Positions 35,370 through 50,678 are shown, counted from the stretch's first letter. The stretch is 64,000 nt of DNA from Deltaproteobacteria bacterium (GCA_040218735.1 JAVJQW010000006.1:64001-128000), one strand, 5' to 3'. Translations and numbers: made by a program. Notes: generated by a model not told the origin, from the letters alone.

Positions 35370-35522
35370 CAGCGTCGATGATGCGCGGGGACGACGCCCG
35401 CCCGAGTCCGAAAGATCGGGGGTGTGGAGCCAAAGACTACGGCGGAGATGTGCCCCACATAGGGCGCGAAGCGCCGGCAGTTCGGCGCCCGCAGCAAGGG
35501 GAATCGACCACGTACAAGACGA

Positions 35523-35578
35523 AGCCCCCATCGCGCCCGAAGGGCGCGGTGGGGGCTGAAGTCGAGTGGCCGACTTCA
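35523..35578 (-). terminator. Stem-loops downstream of the displaced tmRNA 3' end (probable ancestral ssrA terminator)
   Basis: AGCCCCCATCGCGCCC-GAA-GGGCGCGGTGGGGGCT followed by TGAAGTCG-AGTGGC-CGACTTCA. Confidence 0.55.
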
Positions 35579-35607
35579 CGGCGGCGCTCAGTGCCGGCGA
35601 AGCCGGG

Positions 35608-35631
35608 AATGGAGCCGGCGGGAATCGAACC
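35608..35631. repeat. att direct repeat (duplicated tmRNA 3' end)
   Basis: AATGGAGCCGGCGGGAATCGAACC is identical to 45614-45637. Confidence 0.92.
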
Positions 35632-36175
35632 GGCTCAGGCAAAACCATGAAACAGCTAGGTGGCGCGCGTGCTTGGGGCTCTTTCCGTAACCAAACCCAG
35701 CCGTTGTGTGGTCCCCCTTCCGCCGTCTGGTTCTGATCAATACCTCGAGGTTCCGCGGAGTCTGGGCACCATTTGGGCACACGATCAAAAGTTGGGGGGC
35801 CAACCGTGCCCGAGGGTCAACGGATGACGCGGCGGTCACTGCCGGAGATCCGCCGGGACGCCATCGCGAGGGCTGATCGTCTAGCGTCCATCGTCGCCAC
35901 ACCTCCCGCCCGCGGGCGCGGTGGATCGGAGACATCCCCTGGTCACGTCGTCCTCGCCTGCATCGCCGAATTGGACCAAGCAGGCCCAACCGGGTGTCAC
36001 CGCGGCGCCACAACGTGCACAGTCCGCGGCGCACTATTTCCGTAGCGCAAGTGCTACCGCTGCCGCTTGAGATCCGATAGGAGCGCCCGCCCCCGGCCAG
36101 CACGGAGGAAAGCGGCGACGACGGAGGTGCGCCGAGGCAGAACGCCGACATGCGAGCGGTACGACACAACACGCG

Positions 36176-38422
36176 ATGCTGTCAGTGATGCACAAGAGCG
36201 TCGTTCGCGCTGTTCGGGTAGCGCGCGGATGGTCTCGCGTAATAGATTCATTGAGTGTGAAGACGGTGTCGGCGGCAGCAGCAATGGCCATCTTGTTGGC
36301 CACACACAATGTCCACGGGGCGCCATCCGCGGGGGCGATCGCGGTGTTTCACATCCGCAGTGTCGACACAAGCCGGGTTCCGCGAGCGGCAGTCGAGAAG
36401 CTGTCGAGTGAGCTGTCGGAGAGGCTAGCCGCGGAGGGCGAGGAGGTAGTGCCCGACGCTTCTCTCGGTCGCCTCCTGGAGGACCTTCAACGTAATTCAA
36501 TGTCGGCGTGCTACGACGAGAGCTGCCAGATCGAAATAGGGAGGGGGGTGGCGGCTCAGCAGGTTCTCCAGACGCGGATAGTTCAGTACGGAACCAGCGA
36601 ATGCGTCCTGACATCAGTTCTATTCGACCTAAGAACTGAGACAAGTGACTGGAGCTATTCACGCGCCCTCCCGTGTCGTTGGTCGGCCATCAGAGAGGCG
36701 GTTCTGGATATACCCCATCAACTAGTCGCAGGACGCAAGCGTAGGAAGAAGCAAGCGACGACGATAGCGGTCCTACCTCCGAAAGTTGGCGATAAGTCGC
36801 TGGCGCCTCCAATCTTTGTCGAGAGTTTCGCCCACTACTTCGCGATTCTTCTTGCGGAGACTGAGCAGTTTCGCGTTGTCCCTCCTTCGGCAGTGCTCAA
36901 GGTACTTCGCGAAAGGAAACTCGATTCCTACAGCGCGAGATACGACGAGACGAGCCAGGTAGCGGTGGGGGGCGCCCTCCCAGCCGAGGCTGTCGTCTCA
37001 TCGTCGATCGTCAAGAACGGTGACGTCTGCTCCGTCTCGGCAACGTTCTTTGACACGAGCCGGATATCAAGTACACGTGCTGTATCGACAAGGTCCTCTT
37101 GCCGCCCCTATGCTATTGCGCGCTCTTTCACGAGAATCGCGGAGGAGGTTGCCGGTCGACCTCTCGGGTCGCACGTTGAGAAGAGACGTCCTATCCGCTT
37201 CAACTCCATCCCACCCGGCGCCAGGGTCGTTCTCGATGGGGAGCCTGCGTGTTCGTCGACACCTTGCGTGCGCGACCTCGAAGAACGAGTGTACACGGCC
37301 GAATTCCTGCTCGATGACCACGTCCCGCGGCGGCGGGAGTTCGCTGTCGACGACGTGCGAGAGGTAACCGTCGAACTGAACTCGCGTTACGGATACTTGA
37401 CCTTCCTCGGCGGTGGTGGAGCAGGAGTCGCGATAGATGGAACTACGGTCGGCACTTCCCCGATCAGTAATCATAAGGTGAGACCGGGCACGCATGAGTT
37501 CAAAATTGTTGGGGACTGCTTCGAAGATGCCGCCAGTTCCGTTCACGCTGAGGCCGGTGAACATGTCGTTGTTCGACTGGAAACCTTCCGCCGGACGGTC
37601 AAGGTAAATCTAGTGGTTACAGACTCGCGAACGAAGGTGCCATTGTCGGGGGCGAGCCTCACTGCCGATGGACGGCGTATTCGCTTTGTTGACGGTACAG
37701 CGCATCTCCCGGCTTGCACCAAACGGATAGATGTCGAGAGGCGAGGTTATCGATCGAGGCAGATCGAGTTCGGCTCCGCCCTCACGTTCAACGAACAGGT
37801 CGTAGCTCCGCTCGAGGCGAAAGACTGGGTTGAGGCTAACTCTAAGTGGCTTCTTCGAGAAGAGGAGATGAACCTTGTTGAGTCTCAAATTCATCGGTAC
37901 TACTCCAGAGATATCGAGGTCTATGGAGTCCGTTGCCGAGCCAGGGGGGCTGTCGAGTGTGCTGTGTTTAATGGCGAAGAGCTTTTTATGGGATGTGTCT
38001 TGGCGCGAGACGCCGCCATGGATAGCCCAATGGGCGTGACCCACTGCAGTGCTGGGGGTACAGTCTACTTTGGCGACAATGTTGGTAGTCGTCGCGGGTT
38101 CAGGGCATGTTTGCTGTCACGGAACCAAAGGTATACGCCAGCCGGGACCCGTCGCGTGTCGATTCCATGCGCAAAGGGCGGTCTCGTGAAAATATCCAAT
38201 GACGGGCACCTCGTCGGATGTCGGCTTGAACAGAATCTAACGATCGACCGGGTTCATGCGCGCGCGATGGACTGGGTCCGATTTCACGATGAGGGCCAGT
38301 TTTGGTTCCTGAAGATTCCCGAGGCGCGATTGATACAAGGTCGCTTCTGCGAGGCTAGAGCAACTGTCTATTTCGAGGAGGACGGGAGGATCCGCGACTG
38401 CCAGGTGGAGTACGTCGACTAG
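36176..38422 (+). CDS. Secreted PEGA-domain protein with two N-terminal CsgG/TolB-N-like domains and C-terminal MORN-variant-like repeats (start possibly GTG 36257)
   Basis: Duplicated YDE(S/T)xQ(I/V)x(I/V)G; PEGA NSIPPGARVVLDG and VGTSPI; C-terminal V(Y/R)FxxxG repeats. Confidence 0.7.
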   Translation: MLSVMHKSVVRAVRVARGWSRVIDSLSVKTVSAAAAMAILLATHNVHGAPSAGAIAVFHIRSVDTSRVPRAAVEKLSSELSERLAAEGEEVVPDASLGRLLEDLQRNSMSACYDESCQIEIGRGVAAQQVLQTRIVQYGTSECVLTSVLFDLRTETSDWSYSRALPCRWSAIREAVLDIPHQLVAGRKRRKKQATTIAVLPPKVGDKSLAPPIFVESFAHYFAILLAETEQFRVVPPSAVLKVLRERKLDSYSARYDETSQVAVGGALPAEAVVSSSIVKNGDVCSVSATFFDTSRISSTRAVSTRSSCRPYAIARSFTRIAEEVAGRPLGSHVEKRRPIRFNSIPPGARVVLDGEPACSSTPCVRDLEERVYTAEFLLDDHVPRRREFAVDDVREVTVELNSRYGYLTFLGGGGAGVAIDGTTVGTSPISNHKVRPGTHEFKIVGDCFEDAASSVHAEAGEHVVVRLETFRRTVKVNLVVTDSRTKVPLSGASLTADGRRIRFVDGTAHLPACTKRIDVERRGYRSRQIEFGSALTFNEQVVAPLEAKDWVEANSKWLLREEEMNLVESQIHRYYSRDIEVYGVRCRARGAVECAVFNGEELFMGCVLARDAAMDSPMGVTHCSAGGTVYFGDNVGSRRGFRACLLSRNQRYTPAGTRRVSIPCAKGGLVKISNDGHLVGCRLEQNLTIDRVHARAMDWVRFHDEGQFWFLKIPEARLIQGRFCEARATVYFEEDGRIRDCQVEYVD

Positions 38423-38565
38423 CCTAGCCTAGAAAACTAACCTAATCCTAGTCCGGCCGAGCCTCAATGCCGATCTCTTAGCGATAGAACCTCGAAATCG
38501 TTAGCTCCTCGGCGCCGTCACGCGGCGCGCTCGAAGCGATATCGAAGCGAAGGACGACCATCTAT

Positions 38566-41500
38566 TTATAGAACGTCGACGCGGAATACGAGTTCGCCTT
38601 TCGTCGTCCTATCGCTTGTCTCCTGACGACGTAGCGCTCGCCTTACCCATGTATAGACGATGATATTTAGTCCATACCGAACCCGCAGTTCATCCGCCAA
38701 GGTCCGATGAATCGATGTCCGAACGCCACTTCCGAGGCTCTGTTCCTCGTAGAGGCCGACGGCTCTACCGCCCTCCCAGTATCGCGTCCGAGTAAGTGGC
38801 GTGCCGTTTCGGACCATTGTGAAGGAACCGTCTGATCGCCATTCAAGTCCAAGTTGTCGCATCCAGAAACCAGGCACGACGGCAATGGCGTTCTCGTCGA
38901 GCAATGCGAGGCTCCCCCGGTGAAGCGCGAGCAGCGGGACCTCGGCGGCTCCTTTGAGTTCCACTGCCGGCGGAATCGCTTCAGCGATGACCCGAACTTC
39001 TTCGGCCGAGTAGCTTCCCTCTTCAAGGGTTCCGATGCGAAGCAGATTTCGATGAACGATACGCGCCAAATCGTCTTGACTAGCGTTCTCAACTCGATCC
39101 GACGCCGCCAATGCAGCGAACCTCCCAACGTCGTAGCCTGCTCCCTTCGTTGACGAGATGAAACATCGATCGAAGACAGGAGTCCACTCCGGCTTCCTCC
39201 GAACGATGAGGGCATCCGGAACGGCCCTGAGCTCGCACCAGGCCGCTTCCGACGCCCTCGATTCGGGCCCAGAAAGGTCAAGTGCGCGGAGATCCCCGGG
39301 CGGACGGGTGGCTGGACACCAGGATGTCCACCAGTCGCGCGAACGAAGCAACCGCATGACCTCCTGCCTTCGATTGTTCGGACACAGCTCTTCCGCAACG
39401 GCGTTGAGGCCCTCGCGAAATGCCGCCGAGGATGCCGGCTCAAACGGTATCCATGCATAGTTCATACCCTGCGGGTGAATGCTACTACGCCGAAGGGCCT
39501 CGTCTTCCTCGCGCAGGGTCCCCACACTAATCCCCTGGATCTCCAAGTACCGCTCCACTCGCCATAGAAGTTCATCTCCACCGATTGATAGGCAGGCGGC
39601 TAGATGCGGCACGATGTCGGTGACTCGTACAAGACTCTGATCACGAATATCACGCATGAACTCTCGAGACGGACGTATGCCAGGCGGGAGAGATACCCTT
39701 CCCGAAATCCTGTCGTTCCGCGGTATGGCGCGCTCAGGCAGCAGCTCATCGATCAGCTCCCGTCCCTCGAAGTGAGTCCAGCGGTCCATCAAAGCCCGAA
39801 GACACGGCGCAGACGACGCGTCAAATACTCCGCAAGTTCTCCAGGCCGTGAGTACGTATAAAGCCTCGGTCTTGACCCATTGCGGCGAGTCTCCACAGGC
39901 AACCGACACCACAAACGGCACCCAAGTCGCCGGATCGATCCCTCCGACAACTATCATGCGCCTCAGCAGCGACCGTCGCCGACGCAACTCGCGGATCTCA
40001 GTCCATCGCGTGCGAATCATGTCCAAGCCAACCGACCAGAATGATTCTTCAAAGTGGTCCCTGAACGCACTCTCGTACGATGGTAGGTCAAGTTCAAGAT
40101 GACTAAACCTCGCCAATACGTGCGTCCGCAGACCATCGTAGATCCGTTGCAGTACGGAGTGTCGGTCGGCCTCGAACCTATCGAGACAACGCATGAGAAG
40201 GAGATCCGCGCCGTGGGCCCGCCCGTACTGCGTAAGATGTCTCCGCACAGAAGCGAGTGCAACCAAGAGCGGTCGCGATCGATCACTTCGATGGGACGCG
40301 TCTAGGTATTGAATATTCTTATCCCAGATTCCCCAGCCATACGCCGTCTCGAAAGCCCTCTCGAAGTAGTTCAAGCAGAGCTCAGCCTCCCCGACGCTCT
40401 GATATGCGCTTGCAATCGCCGCGTAGCTCTCTGCCTCTCTCGCGACGCCAATGAACTCAACATCAACGATGCGGTCAACGTCGGCTCGGACCGTAGCCAT
40501 ACTAAGGAGATGCCGCGCAGCCGCACCAATTGACTCTTGGTAAGCGAAGTCAACGCCCGTACGCCGCGCCCTCGCTACGAATGCCCCGAATGCGTCAACG
40601 CTATCCCCAATCAAGCGCTCCACATCCTCCGGCCGAATCGGCTTGCCATCCGAACCCGTGAGCAGCCTATCGTCCCCGACCGAACGATCCGCCGTCCCCG
40701 GATTCACCACTGGGCTGACGCTAGCGGGTATGGCCGCAACGCCCAGCCGTCTCGCGATATCGTTGAAATCGGGCGCAAACTGGGCTGTCGTCTTGGGATC
40801 TACCTCGCAACGCAAGAATCGCTCAACATCAGCAGCGAGAGGTATCGAATGGGGCGAACCACCTTGGACCATAGAACCAAGGACTCGAAGAAGCGTACGC
40901 GCCTTCGGCTCAAAGCCGTCGATATCAGCGCAGTCGTCCATCAGATGAGTTAGCACGTAGGCTACGAGAGGATCCCACGCGTCCAGCTCATGAAGATAGA
41001 TAGAAATGCAATCGTCCACTTTCCACGCGCCTACCGTTCCCTCCAGCAAGCGGAGAAACGGAAGGGCGCGAGTAGGTCGCGATTCAACGACTCGACGAAA
41101 TAGGGCCTGCGCGAAGTGCTGCGTGCCTTTTCCGTCGGTCACAGCCTCCATAGCAGCTGCGCAAGACGCCATCTGGGCCCAGCCCTTCTCATCAAAGAAC
41201 GAATGCTTAGCCGCGAACTCGGAAGCATCAATCAATAGATCCAGCGTGCCGTCCTTCCTGTGACCATAACCACCACTGGAGAGAACTGCATCTCGGAGAC
41301 AATCACGTGCGACCTTCTTCCATCCGCAGCGCCCCGCTACAGTACCGAGTCTGAGGAAGTGGGATGTCCGAGTCGCAGTCTCTTGAGTCTCCTTGGCAAT
41401 CTTGTCCCTGAGTCTATCGAACGTCGGCTCCATTGCGGAGCGAAGGCCCGGGAAGCGACCCATCACCTCTAGCAGTAGGAGCTCAAGCCGGTAGTCAACT

Positions 41501-44500
41501 ACCACGTCACCAATCCCGTAGTGCGTATTGGCGATATCAGATCTGGAGAAGACTTCGAGGGCCACGCTGACGCGCTCTGCTGAGACTTGGTGGTGCAGCA
41601 GAAACTGCAGGAGCCCCGAAAGCCACGTCGCCAGGTCGGCGCGAATCTCGCTAAACTTCTCGAATATTCGCGCCTCGTCGCCACGGGGTTGCTCCGAAAG
41701 CCGGGCGAGAAGGGCAAGCCCAGAGCGCTCAGGGGTCTCGCAGGGCGCCGGATATCGAGTAGCCAGCAGCATCAGGTCCATGTTCAGTTTGTAATAGAAG
41801 CTCAACCAGCCAGGAGTGAGACTCAGTCGGCTCGCAACAGCCTTGAGTTCGTCACCCCTCTCCAAGTAGACCAGGATCCGAACGTAGTCCCGGAAATGAG
41901 CAAAGGCCTCGCGTGTCATTCCATAGAACACCTGCTCCTCAAGATTCGGGTAGACCAGATTTCCAAGGAGCGTAGCTGCCGCTGCACGCCCAAGGTCGAA
42001 GCGTGCTACAAGCGCGCCCACCATGAGCCGATCACAGGATTCACGCGCTGCTCCGACAGCCTCCCGTACCGCCCAGGTGGCGCCCGGGAGGTTGAGATCC
42101 GCCTGTACAGAGGCCATCTCTAGGGTCCAGTAGGCGCGAATCTCGCCGGCGGGATCCGTTCGCTCAAGCAATCTCCGAAGTACTCGAAGTGACGCCGAAT
42201 GCCCAAATGACGCCCAGCCTCGAATGGCGACTCGCAACAGCTCTCGACCAGGATCTCCGCGAGGCTGCGTGTTTCCGAGGTTCGCGTCAACGATGTTGAG
42301 GACCCAGATTGGGCTAACAACATCGTAGATGCAGCCAATCCGTACACACTCACTTAGATCGTCGCGAGAGGTGGATTGTGAACCACGAATGGCGGCCTGA
42401 ATCGTATTCAAGGCAACGGTACGACAGCTTTCCAGATGGCCAGAACGGGCTAACGTCGCCAACGTGCTCCACGACGCAAGGGGCACCTCACCGCGCGCTA
42501 CGGCAGCGAGCACGCGCTCAGCCTCTGTCTCGCCCTCACCGGCCGCTTCAATACAGGCATCGAGTTCCGCAACATCAATCTCGTATTCGAGTCGAACACT
42601 CGCATCAGTCATACAGCGCGCGCAGTCAGCTGCAAGCACGACGTCATTCACTATGACCGACCGATCAAATGCCAAGAGCAACGAAGCCTGGGTTTCCTCA
42701 AGCGGCCGGCCGGAAGTAATGGCCTGCTCGACATACTGACGCGCGACGTACTCACGAATGAGGTCGTCGCGATGGGCGCTCACCGCATACCCCATTGCAT
42801 GTGCGAACCAGTCCTTCGTCCATCGGTGTTTGTCGAGGTGTTGAAGAATTTGGTCGTCGACGGACCTAATCTGCTCCTCGCTGAGCCGGGCTTCCACAAA
42901 GAGTCGGAAGCTGTTGTGGAATATGCGCATCGCTGCATTACCCCCGGACAGGAGGTGGCGCACGCGTTGCAACACCGCTTCGGACGCGAACGCATCCGCG
43001 TTGAGGAGTGCGCAAAAGTCCGACTCGGGCAACGTAAAGCTCAGCCTCGCCAAGAGAGCGCAAGCTCGTTTGGTGATTTGGTCAGTGGAGCTATGCGACC
43101 ACAGCCATGAGTAGTAGCTGGTGATGTCGCCGCTATATGGCGGAAGCGCGTGCAGGAGCGTACGCAGCTCGCACGGTTCGTGATTTCGCACGTATTCCGC
43201 GGCATAGTGCACGTACAGCGGCAGTCCCTCGGTGATGCGTTGAAGGAGAGCGCGGTTCTCCGGCCCCCCTAACGCAACGCCCGACGCGCGCTCGAAGCAG
43301 CGTGACGATTCTTGCTCGGAGAACGGGGGAATTCGAACAATTCCGTCGCGGAGCTGCTCTTGGAGATATGGCGCGAGAAACGACGTGTCTTGAGTCCCCA
43401 GAACAGACACAGCGGTGAGCGGGAGAACGCGGGAAAGGAACGAGGTGAACTTATCTTGACCAGGAAGTTGCGCCCTCTCGGCGTGATCTAAGCCGTCGAC
43501 AATTATGAGCAGCTTTCTGCCTGCCGCGGTCAACGCATCGGAAAGTTCGCATAGGAGCTGCCCCAGTCGCTCCACAGAATAGTCGTAGCGCCGCCCGGTT
43601 TGAATAAGATCGCCGTACTTCGTCCAGACTTGCTCGCTCAGTCCCCGAACAAATGACTCGACACCTGCTCTTCTTGACTGCTCTGGGTCGAGCATTGACA
43701 CGTAGGCGTAGTACCTCAAGACGGTAAACCGACCATAGCCGTCAAGTTCGTCGCCGAGCCGCGAGAGCAAGGTCGACTTGCCAGAACCTGGAGGCCCGAC
43801 GACTGCCAGAAGACGGGCGCCTTCGGCTTCAATGCGGTCATGAAGGCTCTCTAGCAGCCCTCCTCGATTGATGTGCGTTCTTCGATCAACCGGGAAGACC
43901 TGGGGCAAGGTTGAACGATCCAACTGCAGCGCTCGAAGTAGTTCCTGTCGAGTGATGGGGGTCGACGCCCGCTCATGAAATCGTCGTTCTATGAATTGTA
44001 CGTAGCGGTTTACGACGGACGGATCAGAAATACCCAACTTCGAGTCGAGGTCCGCGACGAGCTGCCCGCGCAGGCCATCTGATGAGGGTCGCCGAAGGTT
44101 GAACCGAAGAGACTCAAGAAAGAGGGCAAACTCAGGATCGTCGGGGCTACCGCAAGCAGCGGCGAGCTTAGCACGACGGCGCTTGTGCCCCTTTTGGCCT
44201 TCGATGACGCCCAGCGCTACTCGGTCATTGTTGAGAATTCGGGCGAGGTCGGTATCCGCAGATCGGTTCGTATACACGTGGACAATGATGTCCGTCCTCC
44301 TCGACCTTAGGCGTCTCCATCCGTCGAACAGGTCCCTAATGGAGACTATGCTCTCTCGGGGCGACGGTGACGTACCGAGAAGCTGCTCGTACGTGTAGAC
44401 CCCATGGGGATCTGCGGAATGTTTGGCTTGGAACGCTTCGAGCAAGCTTCGTCGCTCGACAATAATATCGTCAACCGGGGCGGCTTCCCGATGCTCGTGA

Positions 44501-44619
44501 TAGACAGCGACGACATCTTCGTCGGTCAACAGCCGTAGCGCCTGCAGTTCGAGCAGCCGCTGTTCGTATGCGTCACCCCAGCGCCTTGCGGCGCTGAACT
44601 TCGTTGCTGGACCGAGCAT
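38566..44619 (-). CDS. 2017-aa STAND/NACHT NTPase with N-terminal PD-(D/E)xK-like nuclease; Avs3a-like antiphage candidate
   Basis: PVDDIIV..FQAKH; Walker A GPPGSGKST; Walker B LIIVDGLDH; EGLPLYV; IFHNSFR; long helical C-terminus with GYGHRKD. Confidence 0.8.
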   Translation of the reverse strand: MLGPATKFSAARRWGDAYEQRLLELQALRLLTDEDVVAVYHEHREAAPVDDIIVERRSLLEAFQAKHSADPHGVYTYEQLLGTSPSPRESIVSIRDLFDGWRRLRSRRTDIIVHVYTNRSADTDLARILNNDRVALGVIEGQKGHKRRRAKLAAACGSPDDPEFALFLESLRFNLRRPSSDGLRGQLVADLDSKLGISDPSVVNRYVQFIERRFHERASTPITRQELLRALQLDRSTLPQVFPVDRRTHINRGGLLESLHDRIEAEGARLLAVVGPPGSGKSTLLSRLGDELDGYGRFTVLRYYAYVSMLDPEQSRRAGVESFVRGLSEQVWTKYGDLIQTGRRYDYSVERLGQLLCELSDALTAAGRKLLIIVDGLDHAERAQLPGQDKFTSFLSRVLPLTAVSVLGTQDTSFLAPYLQEQLRDGIVRIPPFSEQESSRCFERASGVALGGPENRALLQRITEGLPLYVHYAAEYVRNHEPCELRTLLHALPPYSGDITSYYSWLWSHSSTDQITKRACALLARLSFTLPESDFCALLNADAFASEAVLQRVRHLLSGGNAAMRIFHNSFRLFVEARLSEEQIRSVDDQILQHLDKHRWTKDWFAHAMGYAVSAHRDDLIREYVARQYVEQAITSGRPLEETQASLLLAFDRSVIVNDVVLAADCARCMTDASVRLEYEIDVAELDACIEAAGEGETEAERVLAAVARGEVPLASWSTLATLARSGHLESCRTVALNTIQAAIRGSQSTSRDDLSECVRIGCIYDVVSPIWVLNIVDANLGNTQPRGDPGRELLRVAIRGWASFGHSASLRVLRRLLERTDPAGEIRAYWTLEMASVQADLNLPGATWAVREAVGAARESCDRLMVGALVARFDLGRAAAATLLGNLVYPNLEEQVFYGMTREAFAHFRDYVRILVYLERGDELKAVASRLSLTPGWLSFYYKLNMDLMLLATRYPAPCETPERSGLALLARLSEQPRGDEARIFEKFSEIRADLATWLSGLLQFLLHHQVSAERVSVALEVFSRSDIANTHYGIGDVVVDYRLELLLLEVMGRFPGLRSAMEPTFDRLRDKIAKETQETATRTSHFLRLGTVAGRCGWKKVARDCLRDAVLSSGGYGHRKDGTLDLLIDASEFAAKHSFFDEKGWAQMASCAAAMEAVTDGKGTQHFAQALFRRVVESRPTRALPFLRLLEGTVGAWKVDDCISIYLHELDAWDPLVAYVLTHLMDDCADIDGFEPKARTLLRVLGSMVQGGSPHSIPLAADVERFLRCEVDPKTTAQFAPDFNDIARRLGVAAIPASVSPVVNPGTADRSVGDDRLLTGSDGKPIRPEDVERLIGDSVDAFGAFVARARRTGVDFAYQESIGAAARHLLSMATVRADVDRIVDVEFIGVAREAESYAAIASAYQSVGEAELCLNYFERAFETAYGWGIWDKNIQYLDASHRSDRSRPLLVALASVRRHLTQYGRAHGADLLLMRCLDRFEADRHSVLQRIYDGLRTHVLARFSHLELDLPSYESAFRDHFEESFWSVGLDMIRTRWTEIRELRRRRSLLRRMIVVGGIDPATWVPFVVSVACGDSPQWVKTEALYVLTAWRTCGVFDASSAPCLRALMDRWTHFEGRELIDELLPERAIPRNDRISGRVSLPPGIRPSREFMRDIRDQSLVRVTDIVPHLAACLSIGGDELLWRVERYLEIQGISVGTLREEDEALRRSSIHPQGMNYAWIPFEPASSAAFREGLNAVAEELCPNNRRQEVMRLLRSRDWWTSWCPATRPPGDLRALDLSGPESRASEAAWCELRAVPDALIVRRKPEWTPVFDRCFISSTKGAGYDVGRFAALAASDRVENASQDDLARIVHRNLLRIGTLEEGSYSAEEVRVIAEAIPPAVELKGAAEVPLLALHRGSLALLDENAIAVVPGFWMRQLGLEWRSDGSFTMVRNGTPLTRTRYWEGGRAVGLYEEQSLGSGVRTSIHRTLADELRVRYGLNIIVYTWVRRALRRQETSDRTTKGELVFRVDVL

Positions 44620-44856
44620 CGTCGTCGCGACGCCGGATTCGGGTGGCCGAACGAGAGTCTGGACCTCGGTCGACTTGTTCCAACGAGCCCGAGAAGCAAC
44701 GTCGAGAATAACGCCCGACGAGGAGGGGCCGCAACCTCAGGCTTGGTAGAATTTGTGCGCTCGCGCTCCTTCGTGGCCCTCGGCGGACGCTTGGCCGCGG
44801 GCCGCTTTGCTCGGTCCCACAAAGCCTCGAAGCTCCGCAGTCCGCGCAACCCGGAC

Positions 44857-45601
44857 GGCCTGTCGCAGAAGACCGTGAACAATCGCCTGACCGTGCTCCG
44901 AAAGGCGCCCGATCTGGCGTGCGACTACGGGCTCATCGACCACGTGCCACGCCTCAAGTGGCTGCGCGTTCCGAAGCAGAAGTTCGACTTCCTCGACTTC
45001 GATGAAGCCGAACGTCTCCTCAAGGCAGCCGAGGAGGTCGAGCCGTTCTGGTTCGCGATGATCTTCACCGCGATTCGGACGGGGATGCGTCAGGGCGAAT
45101 TGCTGGCCTTGGAGTGGGATGACGTGGACTTGGTGGCCGGGCGGATCATGGTGCGGCAGTCGCATTGGCGGGGGCACACGGACACGCCGAAGAGTGGACG
45201 TGAACGTGAGATCCCGCTGGGCGACGATCTGCGCCAGGTGCTGCGCGACCATCGACACCTACGCCGCCGGCTGGTGTTCTGCGGCGAAGGTGGCGAGCAG
45301 CAGAACGAGAACCACTGTCGGCGACCGCTGTATCGGTCGGCGGCGAAAGCAGGCTTGCGCCGGATCGGCTGGCACGTTCTTCGGCACACCTTCGCCTCGC
45401 ACTTGGTGATGCGCGGCGTCGCGTTGAAGGCCGTGCAGGAACTCCTGGGACACAGCACGGATCGAGATGACGATGCGCTATGCGCATCTGTCGCCCGACG
45501 TGCGGCTCGATGCAGTCCGACGATTGGGCAAAGCGACCAAGCAGCCAGAGGGCAGAATTTGGGCACCAGGAAGTCCCACCGGTTCTAACCGGCCGAAATA
45601 G
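44857..45601 (+). pseudogene. Tyrosine recombinase/integrase, N-terminally truncated and frameshifted
   Basis: TGMRQGELLAL, HVLRHTFAS and LLGHS. One extra G at about 45459-45460 puts IEMTMRYAHL (catalytic Tyr codon 45479-45481) out of frame. No clear N-terminal domain or start codon. Confidence 0.82.
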
Positions 45602-45615
45602 TTAGAAAAAGTAAA

Positions 45616-45991
45616 TGGAGCCGGCGGGAATCGAACCCGCGTCCGAGAGTGCTCCCCCATGGAGCCCTACGTGCGTAGCCTCGTGATTCTTTCTCGCAGC
45701 GTCGTAGGATCACGGACAGCCCTCGACGTCGCCAGCCTCGGTTTGTTTCGCCCCCTCGGCGCCGAGGCGCCACCGGGGAGCTAGCTCACTTTGTTTTCGC
45801 CACGATGGGAGCCATGAGCGGGGCTACCCACCGTAACGGCTTAGTCAGACCCTATCGGGTAGATTAAGCAACAGCAGCGGCGACGAAGTCGTCGTTGGCA
45901 GTTAAAGGTTCCGTACCGTTTTTACCGGCGAGCACGGTTGCCGGACACGCGTTCCATGGATCGACACCCCCGTCGAAACCAGGTCGGCCCC
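45616..45991 (-). ncRNA. ssrA: tmRNA (one-piece), tag peptide ANDDFVAAAVA at 45899-45864
   Basis: 5' GGGGCCGACCTGGTTTCGAC and 3' GGTTCGATTCCCGCCGGCTCCA form an acceptor stem with G3:U; T-loop TTCGAT; the tag ORF ends in TAA. Confidence 0.95.
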
Positions 45992-48740: not shown

Positions 48741-50678
48741 CTAACGTCGCGCCTTCCGGACCTCGCCGATCCTCGCCGTCACGCCGCGTTTGTCGAGCGA
48801 CTCCAGGAACGGGATCAGATACTTCCGCGAGATCCCCAGCAGCGCCTTCGCCTGCGCCGTCGTGATCCCGTCCTCCGCCGCGATGTGCGCGAGCACCTTC
48901 TGCGTCGCGTCTTCGTAGACCGACGCCGCGAAGTACAACCCACCGCCCGCGTGCACGATCTTCTTCGTGCGGGTGAGCGCCGCGAGCAGCTCCTTGGTCT
49001 GTGCCGCGTCCAGCGACGCCGCCGCGCCGAGCGCGGAGGGCGCGGGCGGCTCGAGGCCCGCGGCCGCGAGGGTGTCGAGGACCTTCTCCTGCGCGGCGCC
49101 GCCGAGGTCCACCGCCGCGCGGTGCGACGGTAGCCGCACGCCCTCGCGATCCTCCGCGAGGCGCTTCGACTTCATCATCTGGCGCACCGTGTGGTCGACG
49201 ATGCTCGTGGGGATCGTGCGACCGAGCCGCGTCGACAGCTCCGCGACCGACACGCCGGAGCGAAACGGGAACTCCTTGTGGTACGCCGCGCAGACCGCTT
49301 CGATGCGCGTCGCCAGCTCGTCGACGGCCTCCCCGGAGACCAGACGATCCTGCACGCGCGCGATCGTCCCCTTCGCCGCCTTCTCACAGACCTTCGTGGA
49401 GTGTCCGAGGCGCCGCGACAGATCCGACAGCTCCGCGCCCGCCGGGCCGCGCTCCTTCACGAGGCCGTCGAGCGCATTCACGAGGCGCTCGTCCTTCGGC
49501 CCCTTCTCGACCAGCGCGTTCAACGCCTGCACCAGCGCGATCGACTCCGGCGCCTTGCGCCGACGACGCGCCGGGTTCGGATCGAGCACCACGCCGCCCG
49601 CGATCGTGCGGCCCGCGGAGCGCACCGCCTCGAACCCACGCGCGATGAACCGCATGCCCGGGAGCGTCGCGATCGGCTCGGCGAGGCGCAGCGTCGCGTA
49701 CCCCGTCGAGCCCGGCTCCAGTGCGTCCTGCGCGAACAGCGTGATGCCCGCTTCGACGAGCGACGTGCCCGTGTGCAGGAGGATCTTCGCGCCCGTCTTC
49801 AGCTTCTTCTTGCGGCTCCTCAGGTACGTGAGCCGCACCGTGAGTTTCTTGGTCGGCACCGCCGCGCCGCGCGACACGAGGTTCTGCCCGATGCGGAGCT
49901 GCTCGAGGTCGACGCCCTGCAGGTTAACCGCCGTGCGCTGCCCGCCGAACGCGCGCTCCTCCGCCGCGCCGAACACCTGGATGCCTCGCACGCGTGCGCC
50001 CTTGTCGATCGTGTGGCCGGGGATGGGCGGGAGCACGTCGACGGTGTCGCCGACCGCGAGCGCGCCGCGCAGCAGCGTCCCGGTGATCACACTCCCGAAC
50101 CCCTTCATCGAGAAGACACGATCCACCGGCAGCAACATCGGGCCCGAACGATCCGTGTCGACGACGCTCGACACCGCCTCGGTCAACGCCGCCTTCACCG
50201 CGTCGATGCCTTCGCCGGTCGTCGCGGAGCAGGGCACGATCGGCGCGTCCTCCAGGAACGTGCCCTCGACCTCGGTCTTCACGTCATCGATCGCCAGCTC
50301 GTACAGCTCGCCGGCGCGATCGATCTTCGTCAGCGCGACGACCCCGCGCTTCACGCCGAGGAGCTGACAGATCTCCAGGTGCTCGCGCGTCTGCGGCATC
50401 ACACCTTCGTCGGCGGCGACGACCAGGAGCACCACGTCGATGCCGCCGGCGCCCGCGACCATGTTCTTCACGAAGCGCTCGTGACCGGGCACGTCGATCA
50501 CTCCGACCCGACGACCGTCCGCGAGGGTGAGCGGCGCGAAGCCCAGCACGATCGTGATGCCGCGCTTCTTCTCTTCGGGGAGCCGGTCGGTGTCGACGCC
50601 GGTGAGCGCTTGGATCAGCGTGGTCTTGCCGTGGTCGATGTGCCCCGCGGTCCCGACGATCACGTGCGGATCACTCAC
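48741..50678 (-). CDS. selB: Selenocysteine-specific elongation factor
   Basis: [24 protein letters not shown] and DVPGHERF; C-terminal winged helix [12 protein letters not shown]. Confidence 0.95.

Follow-up and report, generated by a model that had tools for sequence, protein, structure and literature searches.

Does a large intact gene beside a decayed integrase encode an antiphage receptor and, if so, of which kind? The question is raised by a stretch of 64,000 nucleotides from a Deltaproteobacteria bacterium (GCA_040218735.1, JAVJQW010000006.1:64001-128000), referred to here as the window, in which a 6-kb open reading frame (ORF) on the minus strand encodes a protein of 2017 amino acids (hereafter the receptor). 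An earlier reading of this DNA, the sequence-only reading, had described the product as a partner-less, Avs3-like protein composed of a nuclease, a STAND NTPase and a sensor. In bacteria, Avs receptors correspond to the NLR immune receptors. According to our analysis, the product is probably an antiviral STAND receptor (Avs-type, NLR-like) made of one polypeptide, and its gene lies on a genomic island integrated at the tmRNA gene. The family to which it belongs fits the definition of neither Avs1 nor Avs3.

Domain architecture of the receptor

The receptor gene is one ATG-initiated ORF of 2017 codons with zero internal stops, as the sequence-only reading had it, and is present in a single copy in the 11.6-Mb genome. 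The predicted start is consistent with where the relatives begin (alignment A1). The proposed order of nuclease, STAND and sensor parts was borne out, and the boundaries of the parts are given in Table 1.

As modelled, the N-terminus has a Cap4-type nuclease fold with an intact predicted D...QxK site. The D-D..QAK motif noticed earlier is indeed present and intact (D50-D51...Q64-A65-K66), and D51, Q64 and K66 are invariant in 53/53 sequences of a broader alignment (A4). An AlphaFold2 (AF2) model of residues 1-660, based on a 53-sequence alignment, reached a mean predicted local distance difference test score (pLDDT) of 91.4. In VIA-align, residues 10-236 of this model superposed on chain residues 6-252 of E. 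cloacae Cap4 (PDB entry 7yia, titled as a K74A mutant) with a Z score of 17.4 and a root-mean-square deviation (rmsd) of 3.1 Å over 212 aligned residues, and the nuclease fold on which the earlier proposal depended is thus present in the model. The same model also superposed on HerA-DUF4297 (9c1m, Z 15.0), HamA (8zue, Z 13.8) and LmuA (9nxx, Z 13.8). A profile built from the broader relatives matched the Cap4 sequence 7yib (E 1.6e-12), with DDV and QxK of the family opposite DDV and QIK of Cap4. Two PADLOC endonuclease models, the CBASS "Effector endonuclease" (E 3e-8) and SAVED_PDDEXK (E 5e-8), matched the receptor; they also matched 17 and 16 of 22 relatives (best E 6e-25 to 6e-26), 5 and 2 of which were matched by the LmuA and HamA models, respectively. 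No Pfam nuclease family was listed for the receptor at E<=1. The likeness to Cap4, a CBASS effector with a DUF4297 nuclease (7YIA/7YIB, 6VM6), extends over the N-terminal 230 residues and comprises the fold and the active-site motif. Cap4 is switched on when a cyclic oligonucleotide binds its SAVED domain, whereas in the receptor the nuclease shares one polypeptide with a STAND NTPase and a putative protein-sensing domain.

The second part of the protein is, judging from its motifs and its model, a complete STAND/NACHT NTPase. The Pfam NACHT family (PF05729) matched residues 269-444 with 36.6 bits, above the gathering cut-off of 26.7, and AAA_16 and NPHP3_N also matched this region. All motifs named in the sequence-only reading are present, namely Walker A (G275-PPGSGKST-283), Walker B (VDGLDH, 374-379), a GLPL-like motif (EGLPLY, 464-469) and FHNSF (567-571), and all are kept in relatives (alignments A1 and A4). 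In VIA-align, the modelled NTPase gave Z scores of 19-20 to MalT, NRC1, Apaf-1 and a TPR-STAND.

Residues 661-2017 make up the sensor, ~1350 residues that are helical and end in an alpha/beta domain. A weak Pfam HEAT_2 match was found at residues 789-835. Two motifs mark the central part: in the RKD of GYGHRKDGT, D is invariant and K is kept in at least 90% of 22 broader relatives (alignment A2), and the TDG of TDGKG is present in the consensus of alignments A2 and A4. For the C-terminal part, an AF2 model of residues 1340-2017 (pLDDT 82, 21-sequence alignment) is helical up to ~1760 and alpha/beta at ~1805-2015, and the profile of the broader relatives gave weak HEAT/CAND1 and TPR matches in the helical repeats. 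An ESM Atlas search with residues 661-1340 returned a best score of 0.76, which is within noise, and a word-index search with residues 1380-2017 found nothing other than the query.

Relationship to Avs3 and Avs1

Among solved structures, SeAvs3 is the best match for residues 7-660 and 1526-2017 of the receptor. A Foldseek search with residues 1-660 returned 8dgc_A (SeAvs3) as the top PDB match (E 5e-20, 727 columns), the next entry being Apaf-1 3sfz (E 1.7e-9); with residues 1340-2017, it returned 8dgc_B (E 1.8e-9) and 8dgc_A (E 3.6e-9), followed by a generic TPR (E 9e-3). The C-terminal domain, described as unrecognised in the sequence-only reading, proved to have a counterpart: residues 1526-2017 superposed in VIA-align on the C-terminal part of SeAvs3 (residues 1548-2075; Z 13.3, rmsd 5.3 Å, 413 aligned; next row Z 9.5), and although a Z of ~13 can arise among helical repeats, this match is colinear and includes the non-repeat alpha/beta domain. 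Residues 1340-1525 were modelled and lie outside the alignment.

An hhalign comparison between 24 members of the family and 8 sequences of Avs3a gave E 1.3e-27 at ~14% identity, the Viterbi path running through residues 10-1996 against 8-2056. When the regions were compared separately, E was 4.9e-11 for the nuclease (1-240, against Avs3a residues 8-250), 7.7e-14 for the NTPase (241-660), 0.4 for residues 661-1000, 0.55 for 1001-1340, 0.016 for 1341-1640 and 3.7e-5 for 1641-2017, with reversed-template controls at 0.34-0.91. The last region shares with Avs3a an aligned terminal motif, W...GxGxR(L)...FL. The receptor is like Avs3 (SeAvs3, 8DGC) in size and in domain order: a Cap4-type nuclease with a D...QxK motif comes first, followed by the STAND NTPase, then by a long sensor of helices, and the C-terminal end is an alpha/beta domain. 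A true Avs3a of the same phylum shows the nuclease motif as ...QLKH.... The central 680 sensor residues of the receptor are unrelated to Avs3a, and the receptor has no Avs3b partner.

Membership of Avs3 was not upheld by the family models. The PADLOC Avs3a model (PDLC02167, 2090 positions) gave zero matches at E<=1, both against the receptor and at its locus in a whole-genome search, and the Avs3b model (PDLC02168, 238 positions) gave zero matches in the host genome at the same threshold. Of six neighbouring PADLOC/NCBIfam accessions, five are Avs2 or Avs5 models, and these five had zero matches in the genome. The Avs3a model works in the host phylum, where it matched 8/401 genomes with a best score of 2652 bits. 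A high-identity match to a characterised Avs3a, which would have removed the novelty of the receptor, was looked for and not found: against the best-scoring same-phylum protein (P0180), a true Avs3a, the best BLASTP E was 0.88. When that Avs3a was searched against 158 stored relatives of the receptor, it found 0 at E<=1e-5, whereas an Avs1b-like protein from the same phylum matched 91/158. The description as Avs3-like therefore holds for the two ends, where SeAvs3 is the closest solved structure, and for the profile homology of the nuclease, NTPase and C-terminal domain; it does not hold for the family models, in which Avs3a is silent, nor for the NTPase and central sensor, which are nearer to Avs1b. 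As for the missing partner, an Avs3b lies downstream in 3/8 Avs3a-like loci of the phylum and none was recognisable in the other 5/8 among the downstream ORFs tested, so that the partner is not universal for Avs3a.

The closest named match of the NTPase is the PADLOC Avs1b model (PDLC02159), which matched residues 244-578 at E 1.1e-27. The NCBIfam Avs1b model (NF041810) matched residues 251-580 with 74.4 bits, compared with a cut-off of 1500 bits. Such partial matches recur in the 22 relatives (21/22 with PADLOC; 20/22 with NCBIfam, at 242-596 in the first relative, best E 1.7e-36). We compared the family with one same-phylum Avs1b-like protein of 1959 amino acids, which scores 725 bits against PADLOC Avs1b (positions 7-1589 of 1924) and whose gene has an Avs1a directly upstream (E 9e-91). 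In hhalign, the similarity extends over residues 251-1601 (256-1622 upon maximum-accuracy (MAC) realignment) with E 4.7e-28, the reversed control giving 0.38; the NTPase alone gave E 8.8e-23 and residues 1001-1340 alone E 1.1e-4. The alignment runs through the central sensor and includes the region of the RKD motif (...RKDxTLxLLID...), in which ...RKDGTLDLLIDASE stands opposite ...YKEDQFSLLLDAIE of the Avs1b-like protein; GYGHRKDGT itself aligns with ...NWYKEDQ.... Over the last ~400 receptor residues, similarity to the Avs1b-like protein was nil (hhalign E 0.17). The Avs3a profile, for its part, matched the Avs1b-like protein in the NTPase core only (E 5.6e-6).

The receptor and Avs1b are thus similar in length, and their NTPases and central sensors are homologous and colinear. 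They differ in that Avs1b has an N-terminal protease (NCBIfam name) and an MBL partner, Avs1a, whereas the receptor has a Cap4 nuclease and stands alone; no co-oriented neighbour that could take the role of Avs1a was found at the receptor locus, and a genome-wide Avs1a search was not made. Going by the profile comparisons and the models, the family appears to be a mosaic or an intermediate, with the effector and C-terminal domain of the Avs3 type and the NTPase and central sensor of the Avs1 type.

The receptor also resembles SeAvs7 in its effector type and general logic. SeAvs7 is described as having a Cap4-STAND-TPR layout and recognising the major capsid protein (PMC12803255), and the likeness is one of description only; no SeAvs7 entry was among the PDB matches listed. 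With its defence-type effector, STAND NTPase and C-terminal sensor of at least 400 residues, the receptor shows the features that the same source gives for antiviral STAND proteins in the broad sense (PMC12803255).

The host phylum contains canonical pairs with overlapping frames, Avs1a (MBL)-Avs1b-like and Avs3a-Avs3b (L029 436-6315 and 6312-7526 in genome G278; L013 840-1520 and 1486-7767 in genome G184).

Proposed mechanism, trigger and competing explanations

If SeAvs3, EcAvs4 and SeAvs7 are taken as models, the receptor at rest would be an autoinhibited monomer. Its sensor would wrap around a conserved phage protein, and binding of this trigger would release the NTPase, so that ATP binding could lead to an oligomer, probably a tetramer. 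Within the oligomer, the Cap4 domains would assemble as an active nuclease and degrade double-stranded DNA irrespective of its sequence, and the infected cell would die before phage release, as expected of a single-gene abortive infection receptor. Activation of Cap4 domains as a nuclease upon tetramerisation is described for SeAvs3 and SeAvs7 in three sources (PMC12803255, PMC13581612, 10.64898/2026.08.25.746987), which also name the terminase as the trigger of Avs1-3 and the portal as that of Avs4. Since both nearest families, Avs1 and Avs3, are reported there to sense the large terminase subunit, this phage protein is the likeliest trigger, a choice by analogy to which we give about even odds of being right. 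The kind of system, its effector and its likely mechanism are already well known and would hold few surprises for a specialist.

Several observations weigh against this interpretation, either against the antiviral role itself or against its links to Avs3 and the terminase. The AF2 models cover residues 1-660 and 1340-2017, and residues 661-1339 lie outside them. Neither PADLOC nor NCBIfam assigns the receptor to an Avs type, the Avs1b match being only partial. In the MAC realignment to Avs3a, the confident part is limited to residues 10-728, and for residues 661-1340 hhalign found zero similarity to Avs3a above control level. SeAvs3 was not found by sequence searches of the PDB, either with phmmer or with the family profile. 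The receptor gene sits on a decayed island in one genome, and a search of 400 other genomes of the host phylum, run with a stricter first filter and a threshold of E<=1e-30, found no relatives. The terminase is, moreover, a guess, because residues 661-1340, the part expected to hold the trigger, differ from the only solved relative; searches of the host genome with PF03237 and PF03354 found no terminase genes.

A receptor that keeps the Avs mechanism and uses its central sensor to recognise another phage protein, such as the portal, the capsid, a tail component or a replication protein, and hence represents a new specificity class, is a possibility that we hold only tentatively. Such a specificity would be in line with the control-level E values of residues 661-1000 and 1001-1340 against Avs3a, with the invariant motifs of the family's own, GYGxRKDxT and TDGKG, and with the failure of PADLOC and NCBIfam to place the sensor in any named type; in addition, PMC13581612 and PMC12803255 describe many Avs families with differing triggers, as well as structurally distinct sensors for one trigger. 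However, the central sensor, including the RKD region, is colinear with the Avs1b-like protein, the C-terminal domain matches Avs3a and SeAvs3, and Avs1 and Avs3 are both terminase sensors according to 10.64898/2026.08.25.746987. The fuller version, a distinct Avs family in which the NTPase and central sensor are of the Avs1 type, the Cap4 effector and C-terminal domain are of the Avs3 type and the GYGxRKDxT/TDGKG core recognises a non-terminase phage component with a new trigger specificity, may be true and is in our view rather doubtful. That the receptor is instead a true Avs3a orthologue that has lost its Avs3b seems the most improbable explanation. Its length of 2017 amino acids against a 2090-position model, the shared order of Cap4, STAND, sensor and C-terminal domain, the SeAvs3 structural match and the overall hhalign E of 1.3e-27 would fit an orthologue; yet the Avs3a model, which reaches up to 2652 bits in 8/401 genomes of the phylum, is silent at E<=1 on both protein and locus, BLASTP to the same-phylum Avs3a does not go below 0.88, that Avs3a finds none of the 158 relatives against the 91 found by the Avs1b-like protein, the central sensor is unrelated to Avs3a, and the NTPase is nearer to Avs1b.

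The antiviral role as such could be questioned if the gene encoded a non-defence STAND protein, or were an inert relic on a dead island whose frame is open owing to recent acquisition rather than selection. The island is immobilised, with its integrase frameshifted and truncated; the gene was found neither at this site in the same-genus genome nor in 400 genomes of the phylum; and in published trees the STAND clades with a defence role are mixed with those that have another role (PMC12803255). On the other hand, the catalytic and nucleotide-binding motifs are all intact over 6 kb beside the decayed integrase, the Cap4-type effector is a hallmark of defence, with the same fold in CBASS Cap4, HamA, LmuA and SeAvs3, and full length is kept across distant phyla at 25-35% identity, so that we regard this explanation as unlikely. 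Still less probable, in our judgement, is a need for a partner from elsewhere, in the manner of Avs3a-Avs3b or Avs1b-Avs1a (MBL), be it the PEGA-domain protein of the island or a gene in trans. Here, the 3/8 same-phylum Avs3a-like genes followed by Avs3b and the Avs1a that precedes the Avs1b-like gene (E 9e-91) have to be set against receptor neighbours that are both on the opposite strand, a genome in which Avs3b was not found at E<=1, a PEGA-domain protein that matches no PADLOC model, and 5/8 Avs3a-like genes with no recognisable Avs3b among the downstream ORFs tested; furthermore, the receptor carries its own nuclease effector and therefore needs no downstream one.

To our knowledge, every Avs family described to date recognises a single conserved phage protein fold. 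If the trigger of the antiviral receptor proposed here is new, one more phage protein would be added to the recognised folds, and a single gene without a partner makes the proposal easy to test. Since the family links Avs1 and Avs3, two reportedly terminase-sensing families that are barely related, it could reveal how Avs families exchange sensors, effectors and C-terminal domains with one another.

Relatives of the receptor and its genomic island

A HMMER scan with residues 1-1200 against 1.84 billion representatives yielded 1028 matches at E<=1e-3, 652 at <=1e-10 and 45 at <=1e-30. In BLASTP against the 158 stored relatives, 18 of the best 70 rows align to residue 1970 or beyond; identities are 25-35%, and most of the proteins are ~2000 amino acids long. 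The named relatives come from records of Bacteroidota, Rhodothermaceae and cyanobacteria and are annotated only as "NACHT domain-containing protein", "AAA family ATPase" or "hypothetical". A locus search of genome contigs, swamped by the P-loop pattern, gave 8 distant relatives, and a metagenome-contig search with one relative (P0004) gave one 1-kb fragment only. A search of 381 genomes from the phylum of genome G401, recorded as a cyanobacterium, with another relative (P0003) gave zero matches at E<=1e-60, and since no positive control gave a signal either, this negative carries little weight. No defence-system model of PADLOC or NCBIfam claims the family, and no name for it beyond the generic ATPase and NACHT labels was found in any source; the literature searches were aimed at Avs1/Avs3 and SeAvs3/Cap4 rather than at this family, and absence from print is not claimed. 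The family may already be among the 589 STAND clades and 684 sensor structural clusters, where it would stand without a name; these numbers are reported in PMC13581612. As judged from the sequence searches, the family is small, sporadic and nameless, which fits horizontal spread.

A 224-amino-acid library protein (P0018) is identical to the N-terminus of the receptor and presumably comes from another assembly of the same organism. In an Acidobacterium metagenome-assembled genome (L004 4774-7830 and 7812-13988), a type I restriction HsdR gene overlaps by 19 nt at its end with the start of the gene for a 2058-amino-acid protein from the broader Cap4-STAND superfamily, which is a defence-island context and speaks for the antiviral interpretation.

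Table 1. Features of the receptor gene and of the island that carries it (window coordinates; residues refer to the receptor)
Feature	Residues	Coordinates	Strand	Signature or basis
Whole gene, Cap4 nuclease-STAND-sensor receptor	1-2017	38566..44619	-	intact ORF, single copy
Cap4/DUF4297-type PD-(D/E)xK nuclease	about 9-236	43912..44595	-	D50, D51, Q64, K66
STAND/NACHT NTPase (nucleotide-binding, helical and winged-helix subdomains)	245-660	42640..43887	-	Walker A, Walker B, GLPL-like, FHNSF
Central helical sensor	661-1340	40600..42639	-	hhalign to Avs1b-like protein runs through
Sensor motif GYGHRKDGT	1117-1125	41245..41271	-	G1117, Y1118, G1119, R1121, K1122, D1123 and T1125 invariant in alignment A1
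Second sensor motif TDGKG	1161-1165	41125..41139	-	invariant in alignment A1
C-terminal helical repeats (TPR/HEAT-like)	1341-1800	39220..40599	-	AF2 model
C-terminal alpha/beta domain	1805-2017	38569..39207	-	W1948...G1963-x-G1965-x-R1967; beta-rich in AF2 model
Second cargo gene, 748-amino-acid PEGA-domain protein		36176..38422	+	Pfam PEGA E 2e-13; within low-GC stretch; convergent with receptor gene
Tyrosine integrase remnant, 281-amino-acid ORF		44743..45598 (ORF 44743-45588)	+	Pfam Phage_integrase PF00589 E 1.1e-27, profile positions 2-158 of 172
tmRNA gene		45616-45991	-	island insertion site
attL, 27-nt direct repeat of the tmRNA gene 3' end		35608..35634	.	26/27 identical to 45614-45640
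attR, inside 3' end of tmRNA gene		45614..45640	.	repeat of attL; tmRNA gene call

The receptor gene lies in DNA of lower GC content (0.58-0.62 over 36-46 kb of the window, versus 0.67-0.72 in the surrounding DNA). The island is marked out by this contrast, 0.58 against 0.69, together with the att repeats, the tmRNA gene and an empty site. A same-genus genome provides the empty site: there, the left flank (window 35500-35634) runs straight into the tmRNA gene (from window 45615), with zero DNA between them. Because the two adjoin directly in that genome, positions 35635-45614 of the window represent an inserted island of ~10 kb. Its gene content amounts to three, the PEGA-domain protein, for which PADLOC models gave zero matches, the receptor gene and the integrase remnant.

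The integrase is decayed, as the sequence-only reading had stated. It is frameshifted just before the catalytic Tyr, and the segment IEMTMRYAHLSP, which bears the Tyr, can be read only in a different frame. The ORF is also short at its N-terminus, because the catalytic domain starts at residue 83. As far as its own integrase is concerned, the island thus appears, from its sequence, to be immobilised. The claim that the receptor lacks a partner agrees with the layout of the locus: both neighbours of the gene are on the opposite strand, one divergent and one convergent, and the gene is therefore monocistronic. A promoter and terminator scan gave counts not above those of shuffled sequence.

Left of the island, an element of ~125 nt (window 35499-35634) occurs once in the window and three times in tandem in the same-genus genome (L026 1139-1526, genome G108). 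The tandem copies lie directly upstream of the tmRNA gene, each ending in a partial tmRNA 3' end, and may have been left by successive rounds of integration and excision at ssrA. On the other side of the island, ~3 kb past the tmRNA gene, the window contains selB, the gene of the selenocysteine-specific elongation factor (48741-50678, minus strand).

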